Positions 1,128 to 10,510 of a stretch of 10,510 bases of DNA are shown piece after piece; positions within the stretch are counted from its first letter, which is position 1, and each line of letters begins with the position of its first letter. This DNA is from a virus (Duplodnaviria; Heunggongvirae; Uroviricota; Caudoviricetes). Both the position numbers and the translations under genes were made by a program. A model generated the notes under the pieces. That model was given only the letters and a program-made list of their open reading frames with translations, made no database searches and was not told the origin of the DNA. The stretch is from IMG/VR virus record IMGVR_UViG_2690315922_000021, positions 1-10,510 of that record, one strand, 5' to 3'.

Positions 1128-3944
1128 TCAATCTTTATCGTAAAAACTGCCACGTCCGGCACGGGCGCGCCGTTCCATCTCTGCCCTGACCATTTCACCG
1201 ACCAGTTTCGCCAGTTCGCGGGGATTCTGCGTAACAACGTTATGCAGATGAACATGAATTTCACCGCCAAATCCGGAGGCAACAGGCTCCCGGTTACGGG
1301 AAGTTACAGGAACTGATGCCACTGGAGATCGTATGGCCTCCGCCACCGGGCGGGAGCTGGCCGCAACAACAGGGACCAGCGCCGGAGGCAGCGGAGCCGG
1401 GACCACGGGTGTGATATTAATTGCGGGGGCAGGCTTACTGACCTGCGCAATCTTCCGCTCCTGCCACTCCCCACGAACAGCAAGTGCGCGGGGCAGGTTC
1501 TTAAAGACAATATCGCCGGGGCCAATGCGTTTTTTCGTCTCATCAACCAGCTTACCTGTGTTATCAGCAATTTTGCTGAGTCTGCGTAGCGTCCCGGTAT
1601 TGCTGTCTGTGAGCGGTTTGTTGTCTTTGGGTTTATCACCTCCGGTGCCATTGCCATTTTCCACAGGCTTCGGCGGATTGATTTTCGCAAGGTCCCCCTG
1701 AAGCAAGGCAACCTTGTCCTGAAGAATGGCCGCACGCTGTGCGTCTTCGATTTTCTTGCGCGCCCTTTCCGCTTCATCCGGAAGGACGCCAAGTTTTTCA
1801 AGTATCCACGCCAGCGTATCCAGTAGCATTTTTGCAGGTGTCAGAACAAGCTGTAACGCACCGCCAAGAACGTTACCGAATATCTCGCCAGCACTGGTAC
1901 ATTTATCCAGCGTTTCCTTGCTGGACTCCATCGGTGACAGCAGCGATTTAAACCAGTTAAACACCTGGCTGATCCCGCTTCCGATTGCGTCAAAAACAGG
2001 ACCAAACCGTTCAAAGGTTTCGCGCAACGGGGTCAGCCTTTCCATAATCCCGCTGAACACCCCGGCAAAAAATGCCCTGATGGGATCCCAGTATTTCCAG
2101 ATAAGAACGGCAGCTCCGGCAAGCGCAGCCACGATAAGACCAACCGGACTGAACAGCGCCCCGATAGCGCCTCCCAGTAAAGAAACGGAACCCGTCACCA
2201 TTCCCCACAGCGCAGGCAACACCCTGACGACATTCATTGACCGGGTAAGAATGTCAAAACCAAGACGCAGGGTGGCCAGCTTCCCGTAAAGCACCCCAAT
2301 AACCAGCGACAACGAGCCAATCGTTGCAGTCATTGCCAGCAACGCACCGCCTGCTATCAGTAGCTGGCGCGTCAGTACCGGATGGGCCTGCGCCAGCGAG
2401 GTGATTTTTTCAAGCACCCGCGTGAACCACTGCGTGACAGAACGCAGCGGACCGTCAACCAGATCACTGATGCGAATACGAAGACCTTCCCATGCGCTGT
2501 CGAGATTTTTCAGGTCCCCATCAAGATTATCGGCCATTACTTTTGCGACGCGATCGGCCTCTCCCCTTGCCCCCTGCAATTCTCTGGTCAGTTTTTGCAG
2601 CTCTCCTGAACCAGCCGCCGCAACAAGCGTCTGCAAACCAACGAACGCCTCTTCTCCGGCGATGTCCTTGAAGAAGGATACCTGGTCCACCTGTCCGTAT
2701 TTTTGTGTCGCCTTATAGAGATCAAGCAGCACATCCTCCATCGGGCGCATTTTGCCTCTGGCGTCAGCAACTGACACCCCAAGCTCTTTCAGAGCATCAG
2801 CCGCAGCTTTTGGCGGTGATGCAAGGCGGGACAGACTTGCGCGCATGGCCGTACCAGCATCGCTTCCGCGAAGACCATTATTGGCAAGCATCCCGGCCAT
2901 GGCCGCCGCTTCTTCAAGACTGATACCAAGTTTTGCGGCAACCGGACCGGTATACTTCATGGTTTCGCCCAGCGCGCGTAAATCAGTATTGGTCCGGGTG
3001 AATGCTGCTGTCAGCGTATCGCCAACCCGGTCCATTTGATCGGCTGTCAGATTGAACTGTGTGAGGATATTGGAGCCTATATCAGCCGTCTCGCCGAGTT
3101 CGACGCCACCTGCCAGCGCCATATTAAGAACACCGGGCAATGCGGCCTGAATGGCCTGCGGAGTAAAACCAGCCATTGCCAGAAAGCTCTGCCCGCTGGC
3201 GGCATCACTCGCAGTAAACTGTGTTTCAGAGCCAAGTTTTAACGCCTGCTCACGCAGCGCCTTAAACTGCGGGCTGTTTTTGTCGATTCGCGTCAGTGCC
3301 TGAACGCGGGACATCTCTTTGCCGAACCCGATCGCAGGCTGCAAAAAACGCCCGGCAGCATAGCCGCCCGCCGCTGCCGCACCAATTGCCAGCGCACCAC
3401 CTGTTTTCAGTTTCCCCGCGGTTTCCTGCGCGCGCGAATACCGCTCACGCGCCCGCGTTACACGCGCAAGCGCCTGCCGTTCGCGTTCAAGCTGGTTGTT
3501 GTACTGTTCGGTGCGTCTGATGGCCTGCTGGATGGTGTTATCGCTGCCTGTCAGGGAAATGCCGTGTCGTTTCAGTTCTCCGCCAAGTTCCCGCATTTTC
3601 TGAATTTCCCGTGTGCGCGATTCATTCAGGCGTTCAAGCCGGGTGCTTAACTGCTGCATCAGCTTTTGTTGTTTTTCGCTGAGCACTGTACCCGTGCGTT
3701 GTAACTGATTAAGGGCGTTAAGCTGGCGTCGTGCTTTCACGATGCCCGCATCCGCTTTACTGACAGCGTCACGGGCGCGCTCAAATGAACGCGCCTGACG
3801 CTCGAGATTTTTGATCGCCCCCTGCGTTCGCTGGATGGAGTCACCAAACTGCCCCATCAGGCGGCGGGCGTTTTCGGCAGGCCGGGTCAGCCTGTCAACG
3901 GCGCTGAAAGCGACCCGGATATCAAGAGTCTTCATTGTCTGCAT
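1128..3944 (-). CDS. T: Phage tail tape measure protein (gpT)
   Basis: Roughly 940-aa ORF immediately downstream of the chaperone E/E' pair and upstream of gpU. Coiled-coil-prone N-terminal region, a central Gly/Ala-rich hydrophobic segment and a C-terminal region, typical of tape measure proteins. The track ORF begins at a GTG at 3971; ATG at 3944 or 3935 is more likely, so the start is uncertain by about 30 nt. Confidence 0.9.
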   Translation of the reverse strand: MQTMKTLDIRVAFSAVDRLTRPAENARRLMGQFGDSIQRTQGAIKNLERQARSFERARDAVSKADAGIVKARRQLNALNQLQRTGTVLSEKQQKLMQQLSTRLERLNESRTREIQKMRELGGELKRHGISLTGSDNTIQQAIRRTEQYNNQLERERQALARVTRARERYSRAQETAGKLKTGGALAIGAAAAGGYAAGRFLQPAIGFGKEMSRVQALTRIDKNSPQFKALREQALKLGSETQFTASDAASGQSFLAMAGFTPQAIQAALPGVLNMALAGGVELGETADIGSNILTQFNLTADQMDRVGDTLTAAFTRTNTDLRALGETMKYTGPVAAKLGISLEEAAAMAGMLANNGLRGSDAGTAMRASLSRLASPPKAAADALKELGVSVADARGKMRPMEDVLLDLYKATQKYGQVDQVSFFKDIAGEEAFVGLQTLVAAAGSGELQKLTRELQGARGEADRVAKVMADNLDGDLKNLDSAWEGLRIRISDLVDGPLRSVTQWFTRVLEKITSLAQAHPVLTRQLLIAGGALLAMTATIGSLSLVIGVLYGKLATLRLGFDILTRSMNVVRVLPALWGMVTGSVSLLGGAIGALFSPVGLIVAALAGAAVLIWKYWDPIRAFFAGVFSGIMERLTPLRETFERFGPVFDAIGSGISQVFNWFKSLLSPMESSKETLDKCTSAGEIFGNVLGGALQLVLTPAKMLLDTLAWILEKLGVLPDEAERARKKIEDAQRAAILQDKVALLQGDLAKINPPKPVENGNGTGGDKPKDNKPLTDSNTGTLRRLSKIADNTGKLVDETKKRIGPGDIVFKNLPRALAVRGEWQERKIAQVSKPAPAINITPVVPAPLPPALVPVVAASSRPVAEAIRSPVASVPVTSRNREPVASGFGGEIHVHLHNVVTQNPRELAKLVGEMVRAEMERRARAGRGSFYDKD

Positions 3945-4190
3945 TCCCGCTGCGAAGTGCCGCCCGCTCACGCCAGCTAACCACTTCGCCGGGCGTCATC
4001 ATGAAGATTTCGGCGGGCGACCAGTTAAAAATGGCGGCGATATCTGCCACCAGATCTTCGATGTGCTCAAAGCACACCAGGGTGATTACGCTGCCGTCTC
4101 CTGCACGCTCTTCGCGCCAGAGTCTGGCTCGCTCATAAAATTTACAGCCACAGCGCACAACTGAATAAAATCGCGTGACGACATTTTTTT
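3922..4190 (-). CDS. E': Tail assembly chaperone E' (-1 frameshift extension giving the E+E' fusion)
   Basis: The -1 frame relative to gpE is closed by a TAA immediately upstream of the A7 run (4184-4190 on the minus strand) and then stays open to a stop at 3922-3924, overlapping the tape measure start. This is the conserved chaperone frameshift arrangement (lambda G/GT, P2 E/E'). Confidence 0.7.
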
Positions 4191-4515: not shown

Positions 4516-5028
4516 TCAGCCAAGCCCAAGCGCGGAACGGATACGGTCAGGCACAATGTCCTTGCCGTCCTTCCGGTAGATGTGGTTCAACAGGTCGATT
4601 TCCCACAGCGGGCGATCGTTAACGCTCAGCTTGTAGTAGGTGTTTTTGACAGCGTAAGTGTGTGATGTGGCTTCGCCCTGTTTGGCTTCCCCCATATCAA
4701 TTTCCGTCACACGCCCGCGCATCTCGATTTCATACAGATCGCTTTCTGCATCGGTGTAGTATTCACCCGCAAAACGCAGCAGCGTGCCGTCAATCGTGCC
4801 GCCATATTTAAGGAACAGCGCACGAACAGCTCCCCCCATGACAAAACTCGCATCAAGCGCGGAGTCGTCCAGACCGAGATCAATACTTACCGCCCCCATC
4901 ATGCCACCACCACGATAGCTGTCGGTTTTGCGCGTCAGTTTGGGCGGCGTGACGGATGTCACTTTGCCCACTTCGTTTTCACCATCCACAAACAACGTAA
5001 AAAAGCGAAGATGTTTTGGTACAGCCAT
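4516..5028 (-). CDS. FII: Phage tail tube protein (gpFII)
   Basis: 170-aa ORF whose ATG overlaps the sheath stop codon (ATGA-type overlap at 5026-5030), indicating translational coupling. Size and position match P2 FII. Confidence 0.9.
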   Translation of the reverse strand: MAVPKHLRFFTLFVDGENEVGKVTSVTPPKLTRKTDSYRGGGMMGAVSIDLGLDDSALDASFVMGGAVRALFLKYGGTIDGTLLRFAGEYYTDAESDLYEIEMRGRVTEIDMGEAKQGEATSHTYAVKNTYYKLSVNDRPLWEIDLLNHIYRKDGKDIVPDRIRSALGLG

Positions 5029-6212
5029 CAGGCACCTCCCAGCACCGCAAATGCGGGACCAAAGAATTCATCAGTAAACGTCTGGTAAAGCTCCATGTCT
5101 TCCAGCGGGGGAACAGGCGTATATTTGTAGCGAATACGCACACGTCCCTGACGTAAATTCGTGGTGCCGTTATCCACCACGTCATACCAGCACTCCGCAC
5201 CAATCAGTTTCCCGGCAGTAACCAGCGAATCCAGTTTTGCCCTGATGGCACTGATAACATCCTTCACATTCGCAGGCGTCAGTGGACTGTCGATGGTTTC
5301 AAACTGCGCTTCCGCAATTGAATCAGCCAGCACCTGTGCGGTTCGGGTATACACCTCAAAGATGTAGGCGTTCGTTTCCGGTGTGCGGTTGCCCCAGAAG
5401 CGGAACCCGTTGCGACGAATAATGGTCGTGATTTCTTTGTTGTTGAGGCTGTTGGCATCGCTGTCTTCGGCCTGCAACGACCAGAACACATGCCTGGACA
5501 TTCCCAGCACATTTTTAACCGGAACGTTGGACAATGATTTGTGCCAGCCCTGCTCATGGTCAATGTACGCACGAAGGCCGCACGCATAGGCAGGCGCGGG
5601 GAACGTTTCGTTTTTGCCACTTTTCGGGTTGTAGGCGATGAAGTCCGGCCATAAGAGCATCACCTCACGTTCGTTGAATTTCTGGCGATAGGTAATCGCC
5701 TCAGCCATCGTGTTACAGCCGTGACATGAGGCATACACAAACGCGCGCAGTTTACCTGCAATCACGCACAGGGATTTTGTTACAGCCTCCGTGTCCAGCT
5801 CCGGCGCGGCCAAAATACGCGGACGGTATCCGATGCTTTCATCCTGCTCTGCAACAAGCAGCGCATACATCCCCGTATAGCTGCCGTCATCCTCAGAACC
5901 ACCGATAACCAGTTGATCCTGCGTCTTTCCGTCTTCTTCTTTGTGTTCAGCCACGCGAACGACGATCACCTTTGTGCTCACCTGGTCTGAGATGGCCTTA
6001 AGCGCACGATAAAGCGTCCCCGTTGTTCCGCATTTTCCCAGCACGTCATTGACGCGGGTCAGCAGTGTGGGCTTGTTCAGCGGGAACAGCTTCGCGTCCG
6101 CATCATCCGCCGTTGCCACGATACCGATAACGCTGGAATCAACATCGTTAATCGCTGTTACCAGGTCGGTATTTTCCGTAACACGGGCACCATGAAAACG
6201 AGTTTCACTCAT
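5028..6212 (-). CDS. FI: Phage contractile tail sheath protein (gpFI)
   Basis: 394-aa ORF with blocks resembling P2 FI as recalled (LRAFVYASCHGCNT, LLWPDF, GLRAYIDHEQGWHKSLSNV, IRRNGFRFWGNRT, YTRTAQVLADSIAEA, YKYTPVPPLE). Confidence 0.95.
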   Translation of the reverse strand: MSETRFHGARVTENTDLVTAINDVDSSVIGIVATADDADAKLFPLNKPTLLTRVNDVLGKCGTTGTLYRALKAISDQVSTKVIVVRVAEHKEEDGKTQDQLVIGGSEDDGSYTGMYALLVAEQDESIGYRPRILAAPELDTEAVTKSLCVIAGKLRAFVYASCHGCNTMAEAITYRQKFNEREVMLLWPDFIAYNPKSGKNETFPAPAYACGLRAYIDHEQGWHKSLSNVPVKNVLGMSRHVFWSLQAEDSDANSLNNKEITTIIRRNGFRFWGNRTPETNAYIFEVYTRTAQVLADSIAEAQFETIDSPLTPANVKDVISAIRAKLDSLVTAGKLIGAECWYDVVDNGTTNLRQGRVRIRYKYTPVPPLEDMELYQTFTDEFFGPAFAVLGGA

Positions 6213-6369
6213 AGCTTCAGCCCCTTGTATCCGTTAAATGATTCGGCAACAATCATCACCCACCACGCGCGTAATCTCACCCCTGCGCCGTTCTCCCGAC
6301 CCGGCGACAACAAAAAGCAGTAACCTCCTCCGCACGCACATGCGACCATGCCGCACAGGGAGGGAACAG

Positions 6370-7479
6370 ATGACCGACACCACCATGCAATTGCTCAGTC
6401 AGGGCACAGACCCCGTGAAAATGCCGGATTTTGATATTCTCGCGGAGGGTAAAACGCTGTCAGGCGTGGCAGAGCGCCTGATGAGCCTGTCACTGACCGA
6501 CAACCGGGGATTTGAGGCGGACCAGCTCACCATCACGCTGGATGATGCGGATGGTCAGTTGCAGCTACCGCCACGGGGCGCGCGCCTGACGGTTCTCATT
6601 GGCTGGAAAGGAGAACCGCTGACAGAAAAAGGCACTTACATTGTTGATGAAATCGCTCACGAAGGACCGCCGGACAGGCTGACTGTTTCAGCCAGAAGCG
6701 CAGATTTTCGGGATGAATTTAACGTTAAACGTGAGGTGTCCTGGCATGATGTGACCATTGAGCGTGTGGTATCCGCCATCGCTCATCGGTATGGTCTGAA
6801 ACCGCAAATCAGCGAAATGCTGATGGATATCGAAATCGACCACGCCGACCAGACCGAAGAAAGCGACATGTCCTTCCTTACGCGCATGGCGGAAATGCTG
6901 GGCGCAATCACCACGGTAAAAAGCGGTAATCTGTTATTCATTATGCCAGGCGGTGGCGTGAACGCACAGGGCCAGCCGTTGCCATCGTTCGCCATCACGC
7001 GCAGCAGTGGCGATCGCCATCAGTTCCGCATTGCTGACCGCGAAGCGTATACGGGGGTACGCGCTTACTGGCTTGATCTTAATTACGGGAAAAAGAAAAA
7101 AGTCAGCGTGAAACGCCGCAAACCGCCAAAACCCAAAAAGGAGAAAAGCAGCAGCCGTGAAGGTGATTATATGGAAGGCGCGGAAGGCAATGTGTTTGTG
7201 TTACGCAAGACTTATCAGAACGAGCAGGCAGCAAGACGCGCAGCGGCGGCAAAGTGGCAGCAGCTACAACGCGGAGCCGCATCATTCTCCATCACGCTGG
7301 CACGTGGTCGTGCAGAACTCTACCCCGAAATGCATGGCACGGTAACAGGATTTAAAAGCGAGATTGATAATCAGGACTGGATTATTGCAAAAGCCGAGCA
7401 CACCATCGATAACAGCGGCTTTACCACGCAGCTTGAGCTTGAGGCAAAAATCCCGGAATGGATAGCAGAAACAGAGTGA
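6370..7479 (+). CDS. D: Phage late control protein D (gpD, baseplate hub, gp27/VgrG-like)
   Basis: Long ORF. The start is placed at the ATG at 6370, preceded by GGAGGGAA; the track start at 6238 would add an S/P/R/T-rich 44-aa extension and crowd the divergent FI start. Assigned as gpD by size and by position immediately upstream of ogr. Contains a Lys/Arg-rich low-complexity insert. Confidence 0.85.
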   Translation: MTDTTMQLLSQGTDPVKMPDFDILAEGKTLSGVAERLMSLSLTDNRGFEADQLTITLDDADGQLQLPPRGARLTVLIGWKGEPLTEKGTYIVDEIAHEGPPDRLTVSARSADFRDEFNVKREVSWHDVTIERVVSAIAHRYGLKPQISEMLMDIEIDHADQTEESDMSFLTRMAEMLGAITTVKSGNLLFIMPGGGVNAQGQPLPSFAITRSSGDRHQFRIADREAYTGVRAYWLDLNYGKKKKVSVKRRKPPKPKKEKSSSREGDYMEGAEGNVFVLRKTYQNEQAARRAAAAKWQQLQRGAASFSITLARGRAELYPEMHGTVTGFKSEIDNQDWIIAKAEHTIDNSGFTTQLELEAKIPEWIAETE

Positions 7480-7521: not shown

Positions 7522-7782
7522 ATGTTCCGTTGTCCGCTTTGTGGCGCATCTGCCCGTATCCGCACCAGTCGTCCGGAAAATGATTCAAACACCGTGCGGC
7601 AAAAGTATTACCAGTGTAACAACCTGGAATGCGGCGTATGCTTCTCAACACTGGAAGCTTTCCATAAATTCACATCAAAACACGCCTCCGGCGTTCACTC
7701 TTCAGAAGGTATCCCGTGGCATGAGCTGCCAGCTTCACACAGGGGAAACAATCAGATGAGTTTGCCTTTACCTCAGAATTAA
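7522..7782 (+). CDS. ogr: Ogr/Delta-family zinc-finger late transcription activator
   Basis: 86-aa ORF beginning MFRCPLCGA...TSR with a C-x2-C-x22-C-x4-C arrangement (CPLC ... CNNLEC), matching P2 Ogr (MFHCPLC...). Shine-Dalgarno AAGGGAGG upstream. Position immediately after D as in P2. Confidence 0.88.
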   Translation: MFRCPLCGASARIRTSRPENDSNTVRQKYYQCNNLECGVCFSTLEAFHKFTSKHASGVHSSEGIPWHELPASHRGNNQMSLPLPQN

Positions 7783-7791
7783 CAGGCAGAA

Positions 7792-7820
7792 TTGCCGGAG
7801 TAACAAAAAAGCGATAGATT
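7792..7820 (+). promoter_or_regulatory. Candidate sigma70 promoter for the hok-like transcript
   Basis: TTGCCG (7792-7797), 17-bp spacer, TAGATT (7815-7820), upstream of the mok/hok-like frames. Sequence inspection only. Confidence 0.25.
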
Positions 7821-7870
7821 ACGCGCGGGTGCCTTTCGGCTGATGGTCGGAGGGAATACCCGAAGGCCAG

Positions 7871-8107
7871 ATGTGGAAAGGCCCCGGAAAACATTTCTGT
7901 TTAACCGAGGCCCTAACACTTCTTACCTTCGCAAGTAGAAGGTTAGCGCCTCTCCTCTCAGGAGACAAGCGTTATGACGCAAATTCCGTTAAAAACCCTG
8001 TTACTTTGCATAACTGCGGTAGCGATAATCTGGATCCTCCACACATCACCGTGCGAGTTACGATTCAGGTTTGCTGGCACGGAAATTGCGGCATTCTTAC
8101 TATGTAA
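7871..8107 (+). CDS. mok-like overlapping leader frame (modulator of killing) of the hok-type locus
   Basis: Frame-shifted ORF that starts about 100 nt upstream of the hok-like ORF and ends 7 nt before its stop, the same overlap geometry as mok/hok. AAGG 5 nt upstream of the ATG at 7871. Confidence 0.4.
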   Translation: MWKGPGKHFCLTEALTLLTFASRRLAPLLSGDKRYDANSVKNPVTLHNCGSDNLDPPHITVRVTIQVCWHGNCGILTM

Positions 8108-8114
8108 TAAGTAA
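7974..8114 (+). CDS. Hok/Gef-family type I toxin (small membrane peptide)
   Basis: 46-codon ORF absent from the ORF track (below length cutoff): MTQIPLKTLLLCITAVAIIWILHTSPCELRFRFAGTEIAAFLLCNK. Has an N-terminal transmembrane helix with conserved Cys-x-Thr and the C-terminal CE[LI]R[FY]R.G..E[IV]AAF signature of Hok, HokB and RelF as recalled. Shine-Dalgarno AGGAGA 8 nt upstream of the ATG. Confidence 0.7.
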   Translation: MTQIPLKTLLLCITAVAIIWILHTSPCELRFRFAGTEIAAFLLCNK

Positions 8115-8200
8115 GATAACCGCGACGGGGGAGTAATCCCCCGTCAATCGGTTGCTAAGGTTGGTCGAAACGGCACCCTATCTCACAGACATGAACAACA

Positions 8201-8234
8201 AACCCGCAGCGTAAAAACTGCGGGTTTTCTTTTT
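8201..8234 (+). terminator. Rho-independent terminator (3' end of hok-like transcript)
   Basis: CCCGCAG (8203-8209) / CTGCGGG (8218-8224) stem with loop CGTAAAAA, followed by TTTTCTTTTT (8225-8234). Confidence 0.75.
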
Positions 8235-8258
8235 GGTGCCCTCACAAATGAGGGCACC
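8235..8258. repeat. Perfect 9-bp inverted repeat GGTGCCCTC-N6-GAGGGCACC
   Basis: Arms at 8235-8243 and 8250-8258. Not followed by a U-tract on either strand, so it is either a second hairpin of a tandem terminator or a protein-binding dyad upstream of the com-like gene. Confidence 0.5.
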
Positions 8259-8280
8259 ATACATAAGCAATAGGCATAAC

Positions 8281-8320
8281 AGATCGATGCAATAAATCCG
8301 ATCGATAAAAACGATCGATT
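8281..8320. promoter_or_regulatory. Cluster of three GATCGAT repeats upstream of the com-like gene
   Basis: AGATCGAT (8281-8288), CGATCGAT (8299-8306), CGATCGAT (8312-8319). GATCGAT was not found elsewhere in the window on visual scan. Lies 45-85 bp upstream of the com-like start. Confidence 0.5.
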
Positions 8321-8363
8321 TGTTATCATATCGGCAGCAGTAACCACACAAGAGGTGCCGCAA

Positions 8364-8561
8364 ATGACGCAAAATGTACGATGCAAAAATTGCAACAAAC
8401 TACTTGCCCGCGCCTCATTTCACTACATTGAAATAAAATGTCCGCGCTGCAAAACACTTAACCAGATAACGAGAGCCATCGAGCACCCCACACACATTAG
8501 GAGTTATGACCGTGGGGATCGCAATCCAGCACCAACCAGCACATACACCGGAACACACTAA
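8364..8561 (+). CDS. com: Mu Com-like zinc-finger translational regulator
   Basis: 66-aa ORF from the ATG at 8364 (the track starts at a GTG at 8355). RCKNCNKLL...HIEIKCPRCK...EHPT matches the Mu Com Cys4 zinc finger (RCKNCNKLL...HIEIRCPRCK...EHPT) as recalled. Shine-Dalgarno AGAGGTG upstream. The 3' end overlaps the start of the downstream methyltransferase. Confidence 0.85.
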   Translation: MTQNVRCKNCNKLLARASFHYIEIKCPRCKTLNQITRAIEHPTHIRSYDRGDRNPAPTSTYTGTH

Positions 8562-9297
8562 GGTTTATCAGACTGACAATGCCACGCTCTGTCGTGGGAA
8601 TGCGCTGGAAATATTGCCGCTGATTGAGCCAGAAAGCATTGATGCCTTAATCACTGACCCGCCTTACAGTTCGGGTGCGACACACAAGGCCGGACGCACC
8701 AACCAGGGCAGCCATGCAAAATATCTGAACGGCGAGAACATTCACCGTTTTGATGGGTTCGCGGGTGAAAACATGGACGCCCGTTCGTGGGCTTACTGGA
8801 CACAATTATGGATGGCACAGGCACACCGCGCAGTCAGGCCGGGCGGTTATGCCCTGGTATTTACTGACTGGCGACAATTACCAGCTTTAACCGATGCGTT
8901 TCAGGCCAGTGGCTTTACATGGCGCGGCATCATTGCGTGGAACAAGGGGAGGGGGTCACGAACACCACATACCGGGTATTTCCGGCATCAGTGCGAATAC
9001 ATCGTCTGGGGCAGCAAAGGCCATTTAGATAAATCGCCTTCGGGACCGTTCGACGGCTGCATGACATTCCCGGTTATCCCGTCAAAGAAAATGCACCCGA
9101 CCGGAAAACCAGAAGAACTAATGGCGGAACTGGTCAGGACTGTGAATAGTGGCGGAACAGTCCTTGATCCTTTTATGGGGTCAGGGACAACGGGTGTGGC
9201 TGCACTGAAAGCAGGACGCAAATTTATTGGTATAGAAACCAGTGATCATTATTTTGATGTAGCAACACAACGGCTAAAAACGGCGATCGAACCATAA
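8506..9297 (+). CDS. DNA methyltransferase, beta-class amino-MTase (probably N6-adenine), orphan
   Basis: 263-aa ORF with motif IV DPPY near the N-terminus (LITDPPY) and motif I FMGSGTTG near the C-terminus, the IV-then-I order of beta-class N6A/N4C methyltransferases. Shine-Dalgarno AGGAG upstream of the ATG at 8506. No restriction endonuclease partner in the window. Confidence 0.9.
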   Translation: MTVGIAIQHQPAHTPEHTKVYQTDNATLCRGNALEILPLIEPESIDALITDPPYSSGATHKAGRTNQGSHAKYLNGENIHRFDGFAGENMDARSWAYWTQLWMAQAHRAVRPGGYALVFTDWRQLPALTDAFQASGFTWRGIIAWNKGRGSRTPHTGYFRHQCEYIVWGSKGHLDKSPSGPFDGCMTFPVIPSKKMHPTGKPEELMAELVRTVNSGGTVLDPFMGSGTTGVAALKAGRKFIGIETSDHYFDVATQRLKTAIEP

Positions 9298-9302
9298 GAC
9301 AA

Positions 9303-9330
9303 AGCCCGCAATGTTGCGGGCTTACTCTAC
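9303..9330 (+). terminator. Probable intrinsic terminator downstream of the methyltransferase
   Basis: AGCCCGCAA / TTGCGGGCT inverted repeat (9303-9322) followed by a pyrimidine-rich TTACTCTAC tract. The U-tract is weak. Confidence 0.4.
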
Positions 9331-9462
9331 CTCTCGAAAATGTGGTCACTGCGTGGACATACGCTGATACAAATCCTTTTATATCAATAAATTAAATCTT
9401 TGTTTTTTTCATCAACAAGGATTTTCACGTTTGTGGTACCTGTATGAGACGAGAGTTAACCA

Positions 9463-9479
9463 AACAAGTGTGCCATAAT
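9463..9479 (+). promoter_or_regulatory. Candidate extended -10 promoter for flk
   Basis: TGTGCCATAAT (TG-n-CATAAT) about 50 bp upstream of the flk ATG in an AT-rich region. Sequence inspection only. Confidence 0.25.
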
Positions 9480-9526
9480 CTCGCGCCCAGGCATACTTGC
9501 GATGATTTCAGGTATAAGGATACATA

Positions 9527-10510
9527 ATGATACAACCTATTTCCGGCCCTCCTCCCGGGCAACTGCCAGACCGGGAAAACAGCGCAGGCAATCAGCCTTT
9601 ATCCAGTCTGCAACGAACCGCCCTGGAAAGCTTGATGACCAAAGTAACCTCGCTGACGCAACAACAGAGAGCGGAGTTATGGGCCGGCATCAAACACGAC
9701 ATCGGCCTGCCAGGCGATTCACCTTTACTCTCGCGCCACTTCCCCGCTGCGGAACATAACCTCGCGCAACGTCTGCTTGCCGCGCAAAAGAGCTATTCTG
9801 CTCGTCGGCTTTTAGCCCAGTTAGGAGAATATTTACGGTTGGGAAATAACCGTCAGGCGGTTACGGATTACATCCGAAATAACTTTGGTCAGACACCGCT
9901 TAACCAACTCTCGCCAGAACAATTAAAGACCATTCTTAACCTGTTACAGGAAGGGAAAATGGTTATTCCTCAACCACAGCAACGTCAGGCTACCGATCGT
10001 CCTTTATTACCGGCGGAGCATAATACGCTTAAACAACTGGTGACTAAACTCGCCGCGGCGACAGGGGAACCCAGCAAGCAGATCTGGCAGTCGATGCTGG
10101 AGCTTTCTGGTGTGAAAGATGGCGAACTAATCCCGGCAAAACTGTTTAACCATCTGGTCACCTGGTTGCAGGCGCGTCAGAGCTTAAGCCAACAAAATAC
10201 CCCGACGCTGGAATCGCTTCAGATGGCGCTAAAGAAACCGCTGGATACCAACGAGCTGGCAGCACTATCCGCGTATATCGAGCAAAAATATGGCCTTTCC
10301 GCGCAATCCGTCCTTTCTTCTGTACAGGCTGAGGATATCCTGAACCAGCTCTATCAACGGCGGGTTAAAGGGATTGATCCACGAGACATCCAGCCACTGC
10401 TCAATCCCTTTCCACCATTAATGAACACATTGCAAAATATGGCGACACGTCCCAGCGTGTGGATTTTATTAGTCGCCATCCTCATCATGCTGGTCTGGCT
10501 GGTACGTTAA
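9527..10510 (+). CDS. flk: Flagellar regulator Flk (C-tail-anchored inner-membrane protein), host chromosomal gene
   Basis: 327-aa ORF beginning MIQPISGPPPGQ, Gln-rich, with a single C-terminal hydrophobic anchor (WILLVAILIMLVWLVR). Matches enterobacterial Flk as recalled. Shine-Dalgarno AAGGA upstream. Confidence 0.8.
   Translation: MIQPISGPPPGQLPDRENSAGNQPLSSLQRTALESLMTKVTSLTQQQRAELWAGIKHDIGLPGDSPLLSRHFPAAEHNLAQRLLAAQKSYSARRLLAQLGEYLRLGNNRQAVTDYIRNNFGQTPLNQLSPEQLKTILNLLQEGKMVIPQPQQRQATDRPLLPAEHNTLKQLVTKLAAATGEPSKQIWQSMLELSGVKDGELIPAKLFNHLVTWLQARQSLSQQNTPTLESLQMALKKPLDTNELAALSAYIEQKYGLSAQSVLSSVQAEDILNQLYQRRVKGIDPRDIQPLLNPFPPLMNTLQNMATRPSVWILLVAILIMLVWLVR

Follow-up and report, generated by a model that had tools for sequence, protein, structure and literature searches.

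The stretch of DNA considered here carries three closely spaced copies of the heptamer GATCGAT just upstream of a com-like gene, and the question that this locus raises is whether the repeats form a control region for the genes that follow and, if so, what would act on them. The initial annotation had likened the cluster to the control region of mom in phage Mu, and had also offered it as a binding site for a dimeric regulator or as the target of the adjacent methyltransferase. In the text below, the window means the whole stretch of DNA that was analysed, with a length of 10,510 nucleotides.

Genomic setting of the com cassette

The window covers the right-hand end of an E. coli prophage of the P2-like type, which is integrated beside flk, and its features are collected in Table 1. 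A hok/sok-type toxin-antitoxin module (7827–8114) is situated between ogr and the com cassette, and this module is the source of most of the 1,024 E. coli records that were matched by a query of 8100–8560. The terminator-like hairpin at 8200–8227 ends the module and delimits the com control region on its upstream side. The interval from this terminator to the ATAG element contains a perfect 10-bp inverted repeat (GGTGCCCTCA-caaa-TGAGGGCACC, 8225–8248), which is present in some of the related loci, while L085, L093 and L097 carry unrelated sequence (…ggtatccccatcc…) instead; it is an indel-polymorphic hairpin among these loci. At the other end of the cassette, a non-coding gap (9298–9526) separates the stop codon of the methyltransferase from flk. 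The junction of prophage and host (attR) should be placed within this gap, because the integrase gene comes after the methyltransferase in phage Chuche, whose gene order (ogr, hok, com, methyltransferase, int) is the same as that of the window.

Table 1. Features of the window, with positions counted from its first nucleotide.
Feature	Position	Strand	Remarks
Tape measure	1128–3971	-	
Tail sheath	5028–6212	-	
gpD	6238–7479		
ogr	7522–7782		
sok-like RNA	7827–7985		Rfam sok, 47.4 bits, under the gathering score of 59
hok	7974–8114		Pfam HOK_GEF, Hok/Gef, E 2.5e-08
Intrinsic-terminator-like hairpin and T run	8200–8227	+	10-pair stem, tail TCTTTTTGGT
ATAG element	8270–8273		12 nt upstream of the first GATC; core OxyR recognition tetranucleotide
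Predicted OxyR tetramer site	8279–8315		ACAGATCGATGCAAT-N7-ATCGATAAAAACGAT, 15/20 to the consensus
GATC1 (first GATCGAT copy)	8282–8288		Dam site, about -54 relative to the predicted start of transcription
GATC2 (second GATCGAT copy)	8300–8306		Dam site at about -36; abuts the -35-like hexamer
Predicted sigma-70 promoter	8302–8329	+	Only promoter-like site in 7800–8700
-35-like hexamer	8302–8307		TCGATA; a 16-nt spacer follows
GATC3 (third GATCGAT copy)	8313–8319		Dam site within the promoter spacer, about -23
Extended -10	8321–8329		TGtTATCAT; hexamer TATCAT at 8324–8329, preceded by TG
TAACCACAC motif	8341–8349	+	Aligned by MAFFT with Mu AATAACCACAC
com homologue	8364–8561	+	65-aa zinc-ribbon protein; Pfam Zn_ribbon_Com 1e-11, PHROG gpCom 2.6e-17
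Predicted RNA hairpin	8486–8517	+	CCCCAC/GUGGGG; 8486–8491 pairs with 8512–8517, inner CAU/AUG
Beta-class DNA methyltransferase	8506–9297	+	263 aa; Pfam N6_N4_Mtase 3.4e-33
flk	from 9527		

The gene downstream of the repeats had been called com-like, and this was borne out by the Zn_ribbon_Com match, by a PHROG match described as 'gpCom control of modification' and by 60% identity to Mu Com over 42 residues. Its Shine-Dalgarno sequence, AAGAGG, is located at 8350–8355 ahead of an ATG start at 8364. The neighbouring open reading frame, likewise proposed to encode a methyltransferase, does contain an N6_N4 DNA methylase domain (Pfam), and its start overlaps the last 56 nt of com, as in Mu, where com also overlaps the start of the downstream DNA-modification gene. 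The enzyme is probably of the N6-adenine type, with a TDPPY motif near the N-terminus; among solved structures, its best relative is 5hek, a DpnA-type adenine methyltransferase (8.8e-21). RefSeq labels it only as 'DNA-methyltransferase', and its specificity could not be inferred from PDB, NCBIfam and PHROGs, which gave only generic beta-class adenine/N4 methylase matches. A search with the methyltransferase alignment returned, among the matches listed, mostly distant PF01555 relatives without com, and thus gave no information on the control region. Identity with M.EcoGII was rejected on length, that enzyme having 349 aa (PMC5778455).

An arrangement in which a methyltransferase gene takes the place of mom after a com homologue has been described by Drozdz et al. 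(2012) for Mu-like prophages, where Hin1523, Nma1821 and Hia5 are com-linked non-specific adenine methyltransferases (PMC3299994), and the window shares it. However, the promiscuous adenine methyltransferases of that study are alpha-class according to Murray et al. (PMC5778455) and stand in a Mu-like context, whereas the enzyme of the window is beta-class and stands in a P2-like context; membership in the alpha-class promiscuous Hia5 group was rejected on the basis of its class and of the location of TDPPY near the N-terminus. The word 'OxyR' does not occur in PMC3299994, nor is a GATC-based control region discussed there, and our literature search found no paper on the P2-like com-methyltransferase cassette, its control region or its RefSeq accessions.

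The Com homologue is presumed to be a translational activator. In the minimum-free-energy fold, the predicted hairpin at 8486–8517 encloses the start codon (AUG) of the methyltransferase together with its Shine-Dalgarno sequence (z -1.2, not significant), and an analogous hairpin of Mu encloses the annotated GUG start of mom, neither fold being significant against shuffles. By homology, the hairpin of the window is a candidate for a block to translation that Com relieves.

Clustering of the GATCGAT repeats

A scan of the window confirmed the three repeats reported initially, which are spaced 18 and 13 bp apart, as its only copies; all three are on the plus strand, and no GATCGAT was found on the reverse strand in the whole window. 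By count alone this is not unusual, since at least three copies were present in 23 of 200 shuffles, and the window contains no excess of GATC, with 35 sites for an expectation of 37. Three plain GATCs fell inside 31 bp in 586 of 5000 shuffles, while three copies of GATCGAT inside 31 bp were obtained in none of 5000, and any 7-mer occurred three times inside 40 bp in 15 of 1000. The clustering of the longer motif is thus non-random, and the decisive evidence is comparative.

The unremarkable count of the 7-mer would be in keeping with a block that has no function, be it a relic inherited from a Mu-type region, a short direct repeat liable to slip or recombine, or else a hairpin or terminator of low strength, and a terminator-like stem of 6–7 pairs was indeed flagged by the scan at 8298–8318. 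This stem is an automatic consequence of the palindromic GATCG repeats and lacks a proper T run, and we rejected it as a terminator; no RNA family was found over the repeats in Rfam. The conservation of the block among related loci, described below, bears further on this explanation.

A predicted OxyR site over the predicted promoter of the com operon

The window was scanned with the OxyR consensus ATAGnTnnnAnCTAT-N7-ATAGnTnnnAnCTAT, each 37-mer being scored out of 20 at 10,474 positions. Only four 37-mers in the whole window scored at least 13, and all of them are located at 8270–8328. The top score of 15 was reached in two overlapping registers, one at 8270–8306, which begins with the ATAG element, and the other at 8279–8315. 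In the latter register, the predicted half-site ATCGATAAAAACGAT is bounded by the pair of GATCs that are 13 bp apart, and the other half-site, ACAGATCGATGCAAT, contains GATC1. Scores of 15 or more were obtained in 4 of 300 dinucleotide shuffles of the window and in 3 of 5000 shuffles of the local 201 bp. By the same measure, the proven site of agn43 scores 14 and that of Mu 13, compared with 15 for the window. In Mu (13), L106 (14), L118 (15), L119 (13) and L148 (13), too, the highest score falls in the register equivalent to 8279–8315. Which bases OxyR would contact at the predicted site is uncertain, given the degeneracy and AT-richness of the consensus and the tie between the two overlapping registers.

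The predicted sigma-70 promoter places the transcription start near 8336, and the predicted OxyR site covers its -35 element and spacer. The extended -10 follows GATC3 at a fixed distance of 11 nt, and TGnTATCAT is kept in 33 of the 34 related loci, varying only at n (T, C or G), as expected if it serves as an extended -10. The P2 type of late promoter, which depends on Ogr and carries TGT-N12-ACA centred near -55, was considered and rejected, as no such site was found upstream of com; the only matches in the whole window are at 680 and 8439. The second of these (8439–8456, TGTCCGCGCTGCAAAACA) is inside the com coding sequence, where it encodes CPRCKT, and is probably due to chance. Footprinting with Ogr is therefore unlikely to be informative.

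On the evidence of the sequence and of the comparisons given below, we consider it likely, with a probability of about three in four, that an OxyR operator, predicted at about 8270–8320, contains the three GATCs as Dam sites and lies over the -35 element and spacer of the com-methyltransferase promoter.

Relationship to the com-mom control region of phage Mu

The right end of Mu was retrieved and aligned directly (locus L003), its mom upstream region reading GATCGAATCAATTAAATCGATCGGTAATACAGATCGAT. The GATCs of Mu are located at 1160, 1178 and 1191 of this locus, so that their spacing of 18 and 13 bp is identical to that of the window. Over the GATC block, 30 of 38 positions are identical, and in both sequences ATAG stands 12 nt upstream of the first GATC. 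Judged from this alignment, the block and the module to which it belongs are evolutionarily homologous to the com-mom control region of Mu, and not just analogous to it. The homology is visible in direct alignment only: a distant blastn search of 8230–8420 against phages returned only phage Chuche and one chance match, and Mu was not recovered. As the control of Mu mom by Dam and OxyR is established (PMC3378877), the proposal of a Mu mom-like control region upstream of com gains support from the shared spacing, the sequence identity and the position of ATAG, and equally from the OxyR-consensus match and the conservation of the GATCs upstream of com.

The promoter region differs. A stretch of about 40 nt of Mu with a T6 run and a TAAGAT -10, which makes up the C-dependent Pmom, is absent from the window in the alignment, and directly after GATC3, where Mu has this promoter, the window carries an 11-nt segment with the extended -10 (TGTTATCAT). 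No Mu-like weak promoter dependent on the activator C, with a T6 run and a 19-bp spacer, was found upstream of com in the window, and whereas the OxyR site of Mu is situated upstream of the activator site, that predicted for the window spans about -57 to -21 and lies over the core promoter. The host elements differ as well, the window belonging to a P2-like prophage in which Ogr is encoded and C protein is absent, and so do the payloads, Mom in Mu and, without any Mom, the beta-class PF01555 N6_N4 methyltransferase in the window. The comparison with Mu mom made in the initial annotation is therefore supported for the operator and fails for the promoter, which has a conserved extended -10 overlapped by the predicted OxyR site in place of the C-dependent Pmom.

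A further element is common to the window and the C-footprint region of the Mu mom promoter, namely the motif TAACCACAC, whose Mu equivalent AATAACCACAC is carried by an oligonucleotide listed in PMC4461284. In the window it falls between the predicted -10 and the Shine-Dalgarno sequence of com, i.e., in the predicted 5′ leader of the mRNA. The motif is kept in loci of the window type (taaccacat, tagccacaa).

The regulatory outcome need not match that of Mu, because the activator-dependent promoter segment of Mu is missing. By its sequence, the operator looks Mu-like, while the promoter logic looks more like that of agn43 or gtr, with a self-sufficient promoter that OxyR would repress directly. 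The locus can thus be described as a Dam/OxyR operator of the Mu mom type that appears to have been recombined with a different promoter and a different payload, the mechanism itself being not new.

Conservation of the GATC layout among com loci

Comparison loci were collected from IMG/VR by Com protein homology alone, and the region upstream of com was then read. Loci of the window type, in which com precedes the methyltransferase gene, carry the GATC triple at 18/13 bp, and this also holds for L106 and L118, two diverged members whose bases between and beside the GATCs are not those of the window. The triple was found as well in the Mu family and in L213 and L214, which are more distantly related. 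The distance between ATAG and GATC1 is likewise unchanged in the window type, L106, L118, the Mu family and L214. A 13-bp GATC pair is present at the equivalent place in the large com-mom group L119–L155, and an 18-bp pair in another com-mom group, L157–L163; Mom homologues are encoded in the com loci L129–L159. The GATC layout therefore precedes both com-methyltransferase and com-mom operons, and the GATCs and their spacing persist at Com identities of 44–98% while the intervening bases change.

Several details of the L119–L155 group were also observed. Its loci carry only the 13-bp pair (atcGATCgtttttgtcGATCgat), about 60–80 nt upstream of com, with further GATCs 31–32 bp upstream in some of them, and in L148–L155 the second GATC precedes a -10-like TATACT by 11 nt, which is the distance from GATC3 to TATCAT in the window. 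L156 and L207 encode an alpha-class, Dam-like (D12-type) methyltransferase after their com homologue, which brings the number of unrelated DNA-modification payloads coupled to Com to no fewer than three: Mom, a beta-class methyltransferase and one of the alpha class.

Among the 34 loci of the window type, 30 carry the three GATCs at 18/13 bp, and only 26 have all three as GATCGAT. The departures from the 7-mer keep GATC, as in GATCaAT at GATC1 of L100 and GATCgGT (L113) and GATCaAT (L106) at GATC3, besides GATCgTC. As these variants retain GATC while the 7-mer breaks, the selected unit is, as far as the natural variants indicate, GATC, the Dam site, at fixed spacing, and neither the 7-mer nor the palindromes ATCGAT and CGATCG. 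GATC2 is mutated in only one of the 34 loci, L090, a natural single-site variant in which it reads GAAC and the sequence is otherwise identical.

The same variants bear on the explanation that the palindromes are sites of the adjacent methyltransferase or of a dimeric regulator of the phage, with feedback by self-methylation and no part for Dam. GATCGAT does include the palindrome ATCGAT, copies 2 and 3 include CGATCG as well, and a methyltransferase that modifies the adenine of GATC could in principle lock the operon on. Nevertheless, the natural variants GATCaAT, GATCgGT, GATCgTC and aGATC retain GATC and break ATCGAT or CGATCG, and the same GATC spacing precedes com-mom operons that encode no methyltransferase, that of Mu among them. 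Both observations speak against this explanation, which we regard as very improbable. That GATCGAT is absent elsewhere in the 10.5 kb is uninformative on the target of the methyltransferase either way.

A block without function can also be weighed at this point. L115–L117 have lost about 31 bp from the first to the third repeat, at about 1430–1470 of each locus (8282–8313 of the window), and with them all three GATCs; the sequence there reads ...cataacaAATCAATTTGTTATCAT..., whereas the extended -10, com (82–83% identical) and an intact 263-aa methyltransferase ORF are retained. The block is thus dispensable for keeping the genes, which would be in keeping with a lack of function; the same loci may serve as natural operator-less controls. 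On the other hand, conservation of the GATCs and their spacing over the above range of Com identity, with changing bases in between, and of the extended -10 next to them at a fixed 11 nt, argues against this explanation, and we hold an element devoid of function to be very improbable.

In loci from high-GC phages, the GATC cluster was not seen upstream of com. The com loci without it (L207, L212, L216–L224, L228–L230, L241 and L244), many of which are from such phages, share an upstream pattern of …gcgacc…, …ccgtcgacgg… palindromes and …ctatca…, which suggests a separate, non-Dam control region for these operons. Within E. coli, the 84-bp block was found in 173 of 5,426 complete genomes (about 3%), and it is unannotated by RefSeq in all records listed.

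Comparison with known Dam-dependent control regions

The operator predicted for the window can be set beside agn43 (flu), a proven Dam/OxyR switch in which three GATCs lie in one OxyR site at 19/13 bp, against 18/13 bp here. Both contain an ATCG-N7-CGAT half-site that scores 8/10 to the OxyR half-site consensus, and in the window OxyR is predicted to act purely as a repressor of a sigma-70 promoter, itself a predicted one. There is no sequence homology between the two beyond the motif, and the operator of agn43 is located at or downstream of the transcription start, while that of the window is predicted over the -35 element and spacer.

The gtr operon of Salmonella/P22 and opvAB resemble the window in having a 13-bp pair that overlaps the promoter, this pair being at about -36 and -23 in the window. 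In gtr, both GATCs of a 13-bp pair fall in one OxyR half-site, and the pair formed by GATC3 (-46) and GATC4 (-33) overlaps the promoter (PMC2909390). Methylation of GATC abolishes the binding of OxyR in both agn43 and gtr (PMC2909390). The four GATCs of gtr form two pairs in three half-sites, which provide alternative activating and repressing positions, whereas the window has three GATCs and apparently a single predicted tetramer site.

Closely spaced GATCs could also be read by proteins other than OxyR. SeqA requires at least two nearby hemimethylated GATCs, and its binding to such sites after replication could silence the promoter transiently; alternatively, methylation near the -35 element could act directly on RNA polymerase, and OxyR would be inessential in either case. 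Such a sensor would suit the distance of 31 bp from GATC1 to GATC3, which amounts to about three helical turns and puts both on the same face of the helix, a spacing that recurs in the com loci L226, L151, L154 and L155, and the position of GATC2 against the -35-like hexamer would suit an effect on the polymerase. However, positions that match OxyR outside the GATCs are conserved as well, namely ATAG at -12 and the ATCG...CGAT half-site, and the 13-bp pair is an OxyR half-site signature in gtr and not a whole number of helical turns. The homologous region of Mu is, moreover, an experimentally established target of OxyR (PMC3378877). We therefore hold a mechanism of this kind, taken as a substitute for OxyR, to be improbable, though those of SeqA and OxyR could coexist.

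Proposed mechanism and significance

The sequence of the window establishes the sites and their spacing, the homology to Mu, the match to the OxyR consensus, the conservation and the gene content, whereas OxyR binding and its loss upon methylation, the point at which transcription starts and what Com does are inferred. According to the proposed model of a Dam-sensitive OxyR operator, OxyR would bind the sites when these are unmethylated, and probably also when they are hemimethylated, and would block RNA polymerase at the extended -10 (8321–8329). Full methylation of the three sites by Dam would prevent this binding and permit transcription, and Com would then relieve the RNA hairpin that hides the ribosome-binding site of the methyltransferase.

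A further possibility is that the locus behaves in lysogens as a heritable Dam/OxyR ON/OFF switch of the agn43 type, which would make the orphan DNA adenine methyltransferase phase-varying. Behaviour like that of agn43 rather than Mu is conceivable because the activator-dependent promoter of Mu is replaced by a self-sufficient extended -10 that is covered by the operator. Heritable switching at this locus is a speculative and, in our estimate, rather unlikely extension of the model. If it did occur, one epigenetic mark, that of Dam, would gate a second epigenetic writer, and subpopulations might arise with different methylomes or with different protection of the released phage against restriction. 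Should the methyltransferase also methylate the adenine of GATC, the ON state would be self-reinforcing.

Overall, the analysis would extend the control logic of Mu mom, in which Dam methylation, OxyR and then Com act in succession, beyond Mu to another phage family and another DNA-modifying enzyme, and it points to the GATC-18-GATC-13-GATC layout as a conserved and characteristic feature of the com operons that occur in phages with Dam-positive hosts. The analysis also flags an unannotated regulatory element as a candidate for the methylation-gated, and possibly phase-variable, expression of an orphan methyltransferase.
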